This document shows, one piece after another, positions 1-2,550 of a DNA stretch of 2,550 nucleotides. The notes beneath the pieces are model-generated. The model did not search any database. It worked only from the letters and a program-made list of their open reading frames with translations, and was not told the DNA's origin. Origin of the DNA: Escherichia coli (GTDB lineage Bacteria > Pseudomonadota > Gammaproteobacteria > Enterobacterales > Enterobacteriaceae); NCBI RefSeq assembly GCF_003334765.1, contig NZ_QOWT01000073.1, one strand, 5' to 3'. The position numbers and the translations under genes are program-made. Position 1 is the stretch's first letter. The number at the start of each line of letters is the position of its first letter.

Positions 1-1502
1 TTTAATCCGCGATATAACGAAGCTCCCGGAGCTGCGTAAGGTCTTTTTGGGCTTAATATTTGACAAAGGTCATAAGAATTTTTCTTTCCGAGACAGACTG
101 CACGAAGCGCTCTTTCCGCTGTGTTATTGTCCGCCTCCGCCAGACCGTCATCACAGAAGTTGCACAACGCAACCCAGTGCTTCCTGATATACCGGAACGC
201 ATCTCTCAGACGGCATTTTTTCGATAACGTGTGTTCTTTCTCCTGCATCAGCTTATACAGGGAAGTCAGTAGCGGTTTACTCTGCATTTGCCTGACCGCC
301 AGGCGTTCAGACACCGGCAACCCGCGTATTTCGTGCTCAATGGCGTACAGTTCGCCGATTAGTTTCAGTGCTTCTTCCGCCGTCGCGCTTTTGGTACTGA
401 TATATACATCGTGGATTTTGCGCCGCGCATGAGCCCAGCATCCTGCTTCCGTCAACGCGCCGCCTTCACGTTCGGCACTGAACAGCCGATCGTAACCTGC
501 GAACGCATCTGCCTGCAGGATACCCCGGAAGGGACGAAGGTGTTGCTCCGGATGTTTACCCTGATGGTCCGGTGAGTAGGCGAACCAGACCGCCGGAGGT
601 TCTGGCGAACCGGCATTTCGGTCATCCCGGACATACGTCCAGATATATCCTGTTTTCGCCTTCTTCCTGCCCGGTGCCAGTACTTTTACTGGTGTGTCAT
701 CAGTGTGAACCTTGCGGGTGTTCATCACATAACTGTACAGGGCATCATTCAGCGGCGTCATTAACTGGCAGCACGCATCAACCCAGTTGGAGAGTAAGGC
801 ACGGCTCAGTTCGACACCCTGGCGGGCAAAGATTTCACTCTGACGATACAGTGGCAGGTGTTCGCAGTATTTTCCCGTTAACACGCGGGCAAGTAACCCC
901 GGGCCCGCGATACCACGCTCTATCGGACGGGATGGTGCCGGTGCTTCAACGATGCAGTCACATTTTGTACAGGCTTTTTTTACCCGTTCTGTGCGGATCA
1001 CTTTCAGGGCGCTGCTCACCAGTTCCAGTTGTTCTGCACTGACTTCCCCCAGATAATCCAGCTCACCGCCACACTCCGGGCAACAGCTTTCTTCAGGCTC
1101 CAGGCGGTTTATTTCGCGGGGCAGATGCTCCGGTAACGGACGACGATGGCGTGACTGTCGCAACTGGCGGGGAACCTGCGGGTCATCCTCTCGCCCACTG
1201 TAACGATCGCTGTCCTGTTCGCGTTGCTTCAGCAGGGCCTCAGCCTGTTCAACTTCACGACGCAGTTTTTCAGAACGGGTACCGAACAGCATCCGGCGCA
1301 GTTTTTCTATCTGAGCCCGCAGATGTTCTATTTCCCGTTCATCTTCTTCGATCTTTTCTTCGGCACGTGCCAGCACAGAACGCAGGAAGGCCTCCGTCTC
1401 TTCAACCAGACTCAGTTGTTGGTCTTTCTGACGGAGGGCTTCAGCCTGCTCAGAGAGCAACCTTTCCAGCTCTGCGATGCGAATGAGGTATTTCTGACTC
1501 AT
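1..1502 (-). CDS. tnpC: IS66-family DDE transposase TnpC (Orf3), 3'-partial: 500 codons in window, no stop before the window edge
   Basis: ATG is the reverse complement of 1500..1502; I checked every codon in this frame down to position 3 and found no stop. Translation starts MSQKYLIRIAELERLLSEQAEALRQKDQQL (coiled-coil-like), then CPECGGEL...CTKCDC (zinc-finger-like), HTDDTPVKVL and LQADAFAGYDRLF (DDE core), GCWAHARRKIHD, and DNNTAERALRAVCLGKKN near the end. These are hallmark IS66 transposase motifs. Starts 30 bp after the tnpB stop. Confidence 0.9.
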   Translation of the reverse strand, partial: MSQKYLIRIAELERLLSEQAEALRQKDQQLSLVEETEAFLRSVLARAEEKIEEDEREIEHLRAQIEKLRRMLFGTRSEKLRREVEQAEALLKQREQDSDRYSGREDDPQVPRQLRQSRHRRPLPEHLPREINRLEPEESCCPECGGELDYLGEVSAEQLELVSSALKVIRTERVKKACTKCDCIVEAPAPSRPIERGIAGPGLLARVLTGKYCEHLPLYRQSEIFARQGVELSRALLSNWVDACCQLMTPLNDALYSYVMNTRKVHTDDTPVKVLAPGRKKAKTGYIWTYVRDDRNAGSPEPPAVWFAYSPDHQGKHPEQHLRPFRGILQADAFAGYDRLFSAEREGGALTEAGCWAHARRKIHDVYISTKSATAEEALKLIGELYAIEHEIRGLPVSERLAVRQMQSKPLLTSLYKLMQEKEHTLSKKCRLRDAFRYIRKHWVALCNFCDDGLAEADNNTAERALRAVCLGKKNSYDLCQILSPKRPYAAPGASLYRGL

Positions 1503-1532
1503 GACCGTTTTTATAATGCGGTCAGGAGTTTT

Positions 1533-1883
1533 TTACAACATTGTCAGTGAGTTAAGGCGGGATGTTTTTGGCTGACGCCAGTCCAGCTTATCGAGGAGCA
1601 TTACCAGTTGCGAACGGGTAATGGATACCTTGCCGTCACGTACCGCAGGCCAGATAAACTGGCCTTCCTTCAGGCGTTTGGTGAACAGGCACAGACCATC
1701 AGCATCAGCCCAAAGAATTTTAACGGTGTCACCCCGTCGGCCACGGAAGATAAACAGGTGGCCGGAGAAGGGATTATCATTCAGCACATGTTGTACCTGT
1801 TCTCCCAGTCCGTTGAAGGATTTACGCATATCGGTAACGCCGGCAACGAGCCAGATACGGGTACCTGATGGGAGTGAAATCAT
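1533..1883 (-). CDS. tnpB: IS66-family accessory protein TnpB (Orf2), 116 aa
   Basis: ORF-track protein MISLPSGTRIWLVAGVTDMRKSFNGLGEQVQHVLNDNPFSGHLFIFRGRRGDTVKILWADADGLCLFTKRLKEGQFIWPAVRDGKVSITRSQL..., which I recognise as the IS66 Orf2 type common in enterobacterial elements. Size and position between tnpA and the transposase fit. Confidence 0.9.
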   Translation of the reverse strand: MISLPSGTRIWLVAGVTDMRKSFNGLGEQVQHVLNDNPFSGHLFIFRGRRGDTVKILWADADGLCLFTKRLKEGQFIWPAVRDGKVSITRSQLVMLLDKLDWRQPKTSRLNSLTML

Positions 1884-2305
1884 CTTCCCCTCCCGCTCAG
1901 TTCGCGGATCAACACCGTGAGCAGCTCTGGCGATGGATTTTCCAGCGTCATGTTACCGTGACGGAACTCCACCTTGCAGGAACTGGCACTGACTCTGGTC
2001 TGAGTGGAAGTGGATAAAGACGGCGCAATGGCCGCCACAGGTTTTTTCTGCTCATCCGGCGTTATTTCTACAGGTAATAATTCAACGCCAGTGTCAGAAG
2101 AGGTCGTTACCGGAAGACGCCGCGAAACACGCCCTTCGTTCTGCCAGAGCCTGAGCCATTTGAAAATAACATTATCATTGACGCCATTTTCACGTGCAAT
2201 CTGTGCAACACAAGCTCCAGGTTGTGATGCCAGTTCCACCATACGAAGTTTGAATTCATTCGAATAGTTTTTACGAGGTTCTTTTCGCCAGTCCTGTAAT
2301 TCCAT
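1880..2305 (-). CDS. tnpA: IS66-family accessory protein TnpA (Orf1), 141 aa, HTH-like N-terminus
   Basis: ORF-track protein MELQDWRKEPRKNYSNEFKLRMVELASQPGACVAQIARENGVNDNVIFKWLRLWQ...; N-terminal region resembles the helix-turn-helix of IS3 OrfA / IS66 Orf1 proteins. First gene after the repeat; its TGA stop overlaps the tnpB ATG (ATGA at 1880..1883). Confidence 0.8.
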   Translation of the reverse strand: MELQDWRKEPRKNYSNEFKLRMVELASQPGACVAQIARENGVNDNVIFKWLRLWQNEGRVSRRLPVTTSSDTGVELLPVEITPDEQKKPVAAIAPSLSTSTQTRVSASSCKVEFRHGNMTLENPSPELLTVLIRELSGRGR

Positions 2306-2320
2306 ACTTAGATGTCCGTC

Positions 2321-2348
2321 TATATCAGATGGGCGTCTAAGTTACCAA
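2321..2348 (-). promoter_or_regulatory. Possible sigma70-like promoter for tnpA in the leader between the repeat and the tnpA start
   Basis: Minus strand reads TTGGTA (plus 2343..2348) then 16 nt then GATATA (plus 2321..2326). Weak match to consensus, and the resulting leader before the ATG at 2305 would be very short. Speculative. Confidence 0.15.
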
Positions 2349-2365
2349 TTTTCGTCTGATGGCTA

Positions 2366-2390
2366 TATACGGCGGTCAGTTTACGCTTAC
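2366..2390 (-). repeat. Terminal inverted repeat (left end) of the IS66-family element; outer boundary at 2390/2391, inner extent uncertain
   Basis: Plus strand 2371..2390 is ggcggtcagtttacgcttac; its reverse complement begins GTAAGCGTAAACTGAC. The flanking transposase reading frame runs right up to 2391 and then breaks. Length cannot be fixed without the partner repeat. Confidence 0.6.
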
Positions 2391-2550
2391 AAAACGATAG
2401 TGGCTCAGGCTCTCATTTTTCAGCGTTCCCCAGAAGCTTTCCATCGGAGCGTTGTCGTAACAGTTACCTTTACCCATAGAGGCGGATATAAGGGGAATGC
2501 CGGCAGAGCAGCGGCTTGCTGAACGTCAGCGAAAAACGAAACCGCTGTTG
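2391..2550 (-). pseudogene. IS3-family transposase (OrfB, DDE catalytic core) fragment, interrupted by the IS66 insertion; extends beyond the window
   Basis: Minus-strand translation of about 2391..2480 gives GIPLISASMGKGNCYDNAPMESFWGTLKNESLSHYRF. The CYDNA...ESF(W/F)..LK.E pattern, with K seven residues after the catalytic E, is the IS3-family signature. The frame ends exactly at the IS66 repeat junction. An in-frame TGA lies upstream at 2526..2528. Confidence 0.75.

Follow-up and report, generated by a model that had tools for sequence, protein, structure and literature searches.

Organisation of the element

The DNA analysed here is a stretch of 2,550 nucleotides from Escherichia coli (assembly GCF_003334765.1, contig NZ_QOWT01000073.1), which is called the window in the following. 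It contains an ISEc43-like insertion sequence of the IS66 family, a known object, that lies on the minus strand at positions 77..2390 and carries the genes tnpA, tnpB and tnpC. The subject of this report is how these three genes are joined and how each of them may be started. The element is collinear with the intact 2532-bp copy of E. coli S88 and shows 99.65% identity to it over 2314 nt. Near-identical copies have been given the product name 'IS66-like element ISEc43 family transposase' by the Prokaryotic Genome Annotation Pipeline (PGAP), together with tnpA and tnpB. When complete E. coli genomes were searched with megablast (n = 5426), the whole window was found at 99.6-99.8% identity in several of them. 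A match to the window was present in 4454 of the 5426 genomes, and places covering at least 80% of the window were counted for 2269 of the 5426.

All three genes are read from the minus strand. The first gene, tnpA (1880..2305), encodes a helix-turn-helix accessory protein of 141 aa and ends with a TGA stop codon at 1882..1880. Its product was recognised by the NCBIfam profile NF047595 with 83 bits (cut-off 74) and by Pfam HTH_Tnp_1 with E = 8e-12. The second gene, tnpB (1533..1883), starts with the ATG at 1883..1881, ends with the TAA at 1535..1533 and encodes the IS66 accessory protein of 116 aa (NF033819, 117.9 bits, cut-off 50; Pfam PF05717, E = 9e-36). The third gene, tnpC (77..1502), encodes the DDE transposase, which scored 397 bits with NF033517 (cut-off 180) and contains the Pfam domains DDE_Tnp_IS66, zf-IS66 and LZ_Tnp_IS66 (PF03050, PF13005, PF13007). 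The PGAP boundaries of all three genes were identical in two independent genomes with near-identical copies. The IS66 family, which has reportedly been described with the elements IS66, IS679 and ISEc8, shows the same organisation. It has three genes on the same strand, a helix-turn-helix tnpA, a PF05717 tnpB and a tnpC with DDE, zinc finger and leucine zipper domains, the start of tnpB lies over the stop of tnpA in an ATGA, and tnpC follows after a short gap.

Only 475 of the 537 codons of tnpC are left in the window. The element is 3'-truncated at 77/76, where the C-terminus of tnpC is cut off by an inserted IS110-family element, ISEc45, the end of which occupies positions 1..76. In the near-identical locus L001, the 1446-bp insert (8475..9920) carries an 'IS110-like element ISEc45 family transposase' and splits tnpC in two, between ...GAAAAATT and ACGTGTTC. 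The rest of tnpC lies past the insert and outside the window. The transposase gene of ISEc45 is on the strand opposite to tnpC. Since tnpC is cut at 77/76 by ISEc45, the window copy is unable to make the transposase, whatever the mechanism of its expression, and it is a disrupted, ordinary and defective element.

The tnpA/tnpB junction

The open reading frame list, read on the minus strand, places the tnpB ATG (1883..1881) over the tnpA TGA (1882..1880), and the two codons share the sequence ATGA at 1880..1883. The first-pass annotation, made from the letters of the window, had given these coordinates correctly throughout and had regarded the overlap as the arrangement expected for a translational coupling in IS66-type elements. 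It had also named a sequencing error at 1880..1883 as a possible flaw in this picture. Such an error is excluded because thousands of E. coli genomes contain the same sequence.

For comparison, three sets of family members were used: 79 loci on viral contigs (set 1), 80 loci in species-representative genomes of alpha-, beta- and gamma-proteobacteria, collected with a profile built from diverse TnpB proteins (set 2), and 120 stretches from metagenomes (set 3). The junction statistics refer to 107 unique loci or junction combinations from alpha-, beta- and gamma-proteobacteria. A 4-nt overlap of the type NTGA (ATGA, GTGA or TTGA) was observed in 88 of the 107, and a 1-nt overlap in 10 more. The other junctions belonged to damaged copies or were not assignable. 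The copies L037, L007 and L032 from viral contigs were decayed at the junction, with the tnpB start changed to ATA, the tnpA stop shifted, or a frameshift. An overlap of tnpA and tnpB with the signature of coupling has reportedly long been known for the IS66 family. Both the overlapping ATGA and the short distance to tnpC are textbook traits of this family that were described long ago.

The strength of a Shine-Dalgarno sequence was expressed as the energy of the duplex that the 20 nt 5' of the start codon form with the 3' tail of the 16S rRNA, and the energies were ranked against all positions of the window, which have a median of -2.5 kcal/mol. For tnpB, a strong Shine-Dalgarno sequence, GGGAGGGG, was found within the 3' end of tnpA (1887..1894, minus strand). 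Its energy of -10.8 kcal/mol belongs to the top 0.26% of the window positions. For tnpA, the energy was -3.2 kcal/mol and there is hardly any Shine-Dalgarno sequence. Across the family the start codon of tnpB is ATG, GTG or TTG, and a strong Shine-Dalgarno sequence preceded it in only 31% of 55 representatives, chosen such that their TnpB proteins were at most 90% identical. Since the tnpB starts vary and only 31% have a strong Shine-Dalgarno sequence, the conserved feature is the overlap and not the ribosome-binding site. The presence of the ATGA-type overlap throughout the family supports a coupling of tnpB to tnpA, and we infer that the two genes would be translated as a coupled pair. Coupling by an overlapping stop and start codon (ATGA or TAATG) occurs in many operons, for example in trpE-trpD and trpB-trpA. 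The window shares with this type the 4-nt ATGA overlap and the Shine-Dalgarno sequence within the upstream gene.

The junction can also be folded. In the predicted hairpin (1865..1900, minus strand), the GGGAG of the tnpB Shine-Dalgarno sequence pairs with CUCCC in the codons 4-6 of tnpB, and the AUGA is in the loop. The folding energy is -15.8 kcal/mol with z = -2.4, and 4 of the 200 shuffles that were used for each fold were equal or better. The hairpin was retained in most of 39 near-relative variants. A ribosome that finishes tnpA at the UGA would sit on the AUG of tnpB, and the same ribosome would open the hairpin that otherwise would mask the strong tnpB Shine-Dalgarno sequence. The view that the hairpin is selected independently was rejected, because both arms are constrained by the coding sequence and the Shine-Dalgarno sequence and no clean covariation was seen; the hairpin stays a prediction.

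The gap between tnpB and tnpC

From the tnpB stop TAA (1535..1533) to the tnpC ATG (1502..1500) there are exactly 30 nt, AAAACTCCTGACCGCATTATAAAAACGGTC (1532..1503), which is the length and position that the first-pass annotation had given. It had also seen no clear ribosome-binding site in front of tnpC. The duplex energy for tnpC is -2.4 kcal/mol, about the window median, and is equalled or surpassed at 56% of the window positions, which means that tnpC has no Shine-Dalgarno sequence. Across the IS66 family the median energy for tnpC was -2.6 kcal/mol.

How far the tnpC ATG lies from the tnpB stop differs widely between the elements. Distances of 17, 19, 29, 30, 31, 35, 37, 38, 51, 53, 59 ... 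126 nt were found, as well as about 300-320 nt in two elements (L129, L151), and the gaps fall in all three phases. In the window element, the TAA of tnpB is in frame with the ATG of tnpC, 33 nt apart and with no stop codon between them, so that a readthrough of the tnpB stop could generate a TnpB-TnpC fusion. However, the gap measures 29 and 31 nt in close relatives, all three phases as well as gaps with stop codons occur in the family, and the readthrough context is not conserved. This variation in length and phase rules out a conserved readthrough fusion. The explanation was rejected on the 29- and 31-nt gaps of the relatives and the use of all phases, and for the window element itself we give it next to no chance.

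A subgroup of enterobacterial loci (L051, L055, L058, L073 and L076), with TnpB proteins 64-69% identical to that of the window, has a 1-nt or GTGA overlap of tnpA and tnpB and a gap of 19 nt. In this subgroup, tnpC has a GAGG or GGGG Shine-Dalgarno sequence that is predicted to pair with codons 3-5 of tnpC, such that the AUG is in the loop. The hexamer 6 nt 5' of the tnpC ATG is kept as well and reads TAAAGT or TAAAAT.

A promoter-like motif at the start of tnpC

The AT-rich stretch 5' of tnpC contains a -10-like hexamer. Read on the minus strand, the motif in the window consists of TTGTAA (1538..1533), 17 nt, TATAAA (1515..1510), the 7 nt AACGGTC, and the tnpC ATG at 1502. The candidate -35 hexamer TTGTAA consists of the final Leu codon of tnpB and its TAA stop, and TATAAA is the candidate -10 hexamer. 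No other site on the coding strand of the window resembles a promoter.

To survey the family for this motif, 46 representative elements were anchored on their first in-frame tnpC ATG. The sigma70 -10 score peaked sharply 6-7 nt 5' of this ATG and nowhere else. A hexamer TAnnn[TA] was present 5-7 nt 5' of the tnpC ATG in 33 of the 46 representatives, compared with 4.4% for the background, which comprised every ATG trinucleotide of these loci (binomial p ~1e-34). The full signature, defined as the -10 hexamer together with a pyrimidine at -1 and, at a spacer of 17 nt, at least 3 of 6 matches to the -35 hexamer, was found at 25 of the 46 tnpC starts versus 1.1% of the background. Matches to TTGACA peaked only at a spacer of 17 nt, where the mean was 3.13 of 6 compared with about 1.4 at other spacers, and 50% of the elements had at least 4 of the 6 matches. 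Spacer, -1 base and distance to the ATG were counted in the 38 elements that could be anchored on the hexamer. The hexamer was 6 or 7 nt away from the ATG in 34 of them, and the base at -1 was a C in 31. At the starts of tnpA and tnpB, which serve as negative controls, a -10-like signal was absent in the family survey.

The motif was then followed through the variants. TATAA was unchanged in all 29 unique variants of the intergenic region, and its flanking bases vary. TTGTAA, the last codon and stop of tnpB, was kept at the nucleotide level in the lineages with gaps of 29 or 30 nt, including distant Burkholderiales, despite the differing C-termini of their TnpB proteins. In elements with long gaps, the motif was found beside the tnpC ATG and not beside the tnpB stop, as in L129 (321 nt), L127 (104 nt), and L109 and L106 (both 81 nt). 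The gap varies in length and phase and the promoter motif is fixed to the ATG, which argues for an own promoter of tnpC and a leaderless start.

In the mechanism that we propose, tnpC would not be coupled to tnpB and would have its own sigma70-type promoter, consisting of TTGTAA, 17 nt, TATAAA and 7 nt. Transcription would begin with the A of the tnpC ATG and give rise to a leaderless transposase mRNA. Such an mRNA would need no Shine-Dalgarno sequence, and in proteobacteria a weak translation would be expected. An own promoter with a leaderless start would explain why tnpC lacks a Shine-Dalgarno sequence and why the gap varies. It would likewise account for the 17-nt spacer, the fixed distance of the motif to the ATG, the conservation of TTGTAA and the C at -1.

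Leaderless mRNAs are known from promoters that abut the start codon, such as the cI mRNA of phage lambda from PRM and the tetR mRNA of Tn1721. These have a -10 hexamer 6-7 nt 5' of the AUG, no Shine-Dalgarno sequence, an obligatory AUG and a weak translation. A pyrimidine at -1 and a purine at +1 are the preferred context of a transcription start. The window matches these cases at the sequence level, and with the -10 hexamer at 6-7 nt, the C(-1)/A(+1), the AUG and the lack of a Shine-Dalgarno sequence the predicted tnpC start has the anatomy of a leaderless mRNA. In contrast to lambda cI and Tn1721 tetR, the candidate promoter of the window is located inside an operon-like array, and its -35 hexamer includes the tnpB stop codon.

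A tnpC gene without a Shine-Dalgarno sequence would also be expected if tnpC was translated from a polycistronic tnpA-tnpB-tnpC mRNA by ribosomes that terminate at the tnpB stop and reach the tnpC start by termination-reinitiation or by 70S scanning over the 30 nt. The single orientation and the short spacing of the three genes throughout the family agree with this explanation. However, the distance from stop to ATG is not conserved (17-126 nt, and more than 300 nt in L129 and L151) and the promoter-like motif follows the ATG. It is also textbook knowledge that ribosomes reinitiate poorly after 30 nt or more that lack a Shine-Dalgarno sequence. Two observations are left unexplained, the -35-like element with its spacer of exactly 17 nt and the conservation of TTGTAA at the nucleotide level. 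A coupling to tnpB accounts only for the missing Shine-Dalgarno sequence and, possibly, for the hairpin described below, and we consider it unlikely. The first-pass annotation had suggested that tnpC expression depends on upstream translation or is intrinsically low. Since the gap varies and the promoter motif is fixed, the dependence on upstream translation is probably not given, whereas an intrinsically low expression is still plausible. The first-pass interpretation is partly supported, for the coupling of tnpA and tnpB but probably not for the dependence of tnpC.

Low expression could also have a simpler basis. Transposases are usually expressed at a very low level, as is textbook knowledge, and the missing Shine-Dalgarno sequence might reflect that tnpC is translated from the polycistronic mRNA at a very low and unregulated level. 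In this case the motif would be fortuitous or would enhance translation as an A/T-rich element, and it fits with this that the promoter match of the window is not significant as a single site. However, a bipartite motif with a 17-nt spacer, 6-7 nt to the ATG and a C at -1 that is kept in alpha-, beta- and gamma-proteobacteria, GC-rich hosts among them, is unlike a generic A/U-rich enhancer, and we see only a slim chance for this explanation.

An inverted repeat around the -10 hexamer

The proposed promoter of tnpC overlaps an inverted repeat, ACUC-C-UGACCG / CGGUCA-U-GAGU (1497..1529, minus strand). Its arms flank the -10 hexamer, and the tnpC AUG is in the 3' arm. Folded as a hairpin, the repeat has an energy of -12.6 kcal/mol with z = -3.9, and none of the 200 shuffles was as good. 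In relatives the pairing is kept with other sequences, such as TCATGGCCG/CGGCCATGA, TCATAACCGC/GCGGTTATGA and CATCCCG/CGGGCATG. When the 29 unique variants were analysed, 76.7% of the cells were paired, compared with 22-35% when the partners were slid against each other. Two pairs covary, with 14 cells changed on both sides versus 5.0 +/- 3.1 in shuffles. An intrinsic terminator was not predicted between tnpB and tnpC, where a T-run after the hairpin is absent, and Rfam covariance models gave no match to the whole window with E-values up to 1. In the ISEc43-like element L084 of Acerihabitans arboris, the 3' arm is replaced by GGGGG, which provides a strong tnpC Shine-Dalgarno sequence (-10.7 kcal/mol), and the hairpin is lost (-3.6 kcal/mol). 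L084 is a natural switch to a conventional tnpC start.

With a transcription start at the ATG, the 5' arm would be absent from the native mRNA and only read-through transcripts could fold the hairpin. In the weakest step of the proposed mechanism, the tnpC AUG would pair in read-through transcripts with an upstream segment that is missing from the leaderless transcript. This pairing would silence tnpC on foreign transcripts or on tnpAB transcripts, comparable to the fold-back inhibition of IS10 and IS50. For these two elements, translation of the transposase is said to be inhibited in read-through transcripts by folding back. There as in the window, the complementary segment is 5' of the element's own transcription start, which for tnpC is a proposed one, and only longer transcripts could sequester the start codon. 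In IS10 and IS50, however, the arm is close to the terminal repeat and protects from transcripts that come from outside, whereas the arm in the window lies between two genes of the element. Our confidence that a hairpin buries the tnpC AUG in longer transcripts is weak to moderate.

The hairpin also bears on the coupling of tnpC to tnpB. It begins just 3 nt past the tnpB stop and includes the AUG, so that a ribosome terminating on tnpB would unwind the base of this hairpin, by which the AUG is hidden, and the synthesis of the transposase would depend on the translation of tnpB. Some compensatory change in the arms points to transcripts with the 5' arm being under selection, which is in favour of the coupling as well.

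The repeat might instead act as DNA, and not by folding in the RNA. It would then be a candidate palindromic operator for a dimeric regulator, TnpA, TnpC or a host factor, that represses the tnpC promoter. The arms are symmetric around the -10 hexamer, as in TCATGGCCG-GATTATAAAAA-CGGCCATGA of L009 and GCATGCGCG-TAAACTC-CGCGCATGC of L093, joint changes in the half-sites look like RNA covariation, and TnpA is a helix-turn-helix protein. However, variants of the G-U type (L003, L171, L184) occur beside A-C mismatches (L165), and in many lineages the repeat is absent or in another register. An operator concerns the role of the repeat only, would explain the repeat equally well, and is compatible with a leaderless tnpC. 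We regard it as rather improbable.

Several observations weigh against a leaderless tnpC with its own promoter and a hairpin in longer transcripts. As a single site, TTGTAA/TATAAA with its 9 of 12 matches is not rarer than random expectation (2 sites were present in the window versus 2.9 expected), and TATAAA does not have the T at position 6 that is usually critical. The motif is missing at 13 of the 46 first tnpC ATGs, and the enterobacterial subgroup with the 19-nt gap has the GAGG Shine-Dalgarno sequence with -7.6 to -7.8 kcal/mol. The representatives are related, such that the binomial p-values overstate their independence. Leaderless mRNAs are rare in gamma- and beta-proteobacteria, where they make up 0.46-1.41% of the genes (PMC6161684). 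For the hairpin, the RNAalifold consensus was weak with 3 pairs retained, and the U of the tnpC AUG is mismatched in the window. A sequestration of the AUG by the upstream sequence was better than in shuffles in only 10 of 38 representatives. With this count and the weak consensus, the sequestration was rejected as a family-wide feature and downgraded to a lineage-specific auxiliary feature. Complementary arms that are conserved 5' of the proposed start mean that longer transcripts matter, which is also predicted by coupling. Finally, the proposed promoter and start site of tnpC are predictions from sequence conservation.

Taken together, our results make it somewhat probable that the window element combines a coupled tnpA-tnpB pair, a leaderless tnpC with its own promoter and an AUG hairpin in read-through transcripts. 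For the family, the chances are about even that most three-gene IS66 elements would express tnpC from an internal sigma70 promoter, leaderless and outside the coupled operon, with a -35 hexamer that can reach into the tnpB stop, a transcription start on the A of the ATG, and the AUG locked in a hairpin on read-through transcripts in some lineages, that of the window among them.

Termini and surroundings of the element

The left terminal inverted repeat GTAAGCGTAAACTGACCGCCGTATAT (2365..2390, minus strand) begins at the start of the similarity to the intact copies and opens as GTAAGCGTAAAC at 2390. The terminal repeats begin with GTAAGCG, as in the IS66 family. The right repeat lies beyond the window and was seen at the same locus in L001 and in S88. 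In the S88 copy, the right repeat GTAAGCGTCAACGGAGCACCGTAT matches the left repeat, the 8-bp target duplication TTATAGAC is present on both sides and TnpC has 537 aa; 8-bp target duplications are likewise a trait of the family in intact copies. At the window locus an 8-bp target duplication was not found, with ATCGTTTT on the left versus GAAAGCTG on the right (L001 6141..6160, 10140..10165). Its absence points to a later rearrangement and does not speak against membership in the IS66 family. The window copy differs from the described family in that it was broken by ISEc45 and lost the target duplication.

Beside the left repeat, a fragment of an IS3-family transposase, GKGNCYDNAPMESFWGTLKNESLSHYRF, was detected at 2391..2474 on the minus strand (NF033516, E = 5e-9, profile positions 308-334). 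Since this fragment flanks the left repeat, ISEc43 sits in the remnant of another insertion sequence. On the opposite strand, a partial 'IS66 family transposase' annotated by PGAP in L001 extends into the window at 2476..2550 (plus strand). A search with the 25-aa piece encoded there gave no match. The right flank of the ISEc43 copy in L001 is another IS66-family fragment, which together with the lack of a target duplication points to recombination between insertion sequences. The L001 locus is a mosaic of insertion-sequence remnants between iha and espI.

Two further sequence similarities were noted within the element. An 8-mer, CTGACCGC, is common to the left repeat (2379..2372) and the tnpB-tnpC intergenic region (1524..1517), both on the minus strand. 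The left repeat also holds GCGTAAACT, which is similar to the -10 region of Burkholderiales; the left repeats of other elements, GTAAGCGTCCGG...CCGTCT, are without that motif. The idea that the tnpB-tnpC region is an internal copy of the terminal repeat was rejected and the similarity judged to be chance, as the 8-mer is not kept in close relatives. Antisense to tnpB, a promoter-like TAAACA, 18 nt, TATCAT with 9 of 12 matches is present at 1751..1780 on the plus strand, and sites of this kind are not more numerous in the window than by chance.

Implications for the IS66 family

The first-pass annotation had missed the strong tnpB Shine-Dalgarno sequence, the -10-like hexamer within the AT-rich stretch and the truncation of tnpC by ISEc45. 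The element and the layout of its junctions are already known, and the promoter reading of tnpC may be new. In the IS66 literature searched we found no description of an internal promoter, a leaderless tnpC or a primary 5' end mapped to its start codon; this search left out key primary papers and the ISfinder text, and priority is not claimed.

IS66 elements are very abundant and make up one of the largest families of insertion sequences, and the TnpB family alone comprises more than 12,000 clusters at 50% identity. The roles and the stoichiometry of the three proteins are poorly understood. The useful product of this re-examination is a testable, family-wide hypothesis on the expression of the IS66 transposase. 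If a leaderless tnpC promoter is true, the transposase and the accessory proteins would be under separate control, and expression constructs and transposition assays for the IS66 family would need a different design. A widespread and conserved case would then join the few leaderless genes that are known in proteobacteria.

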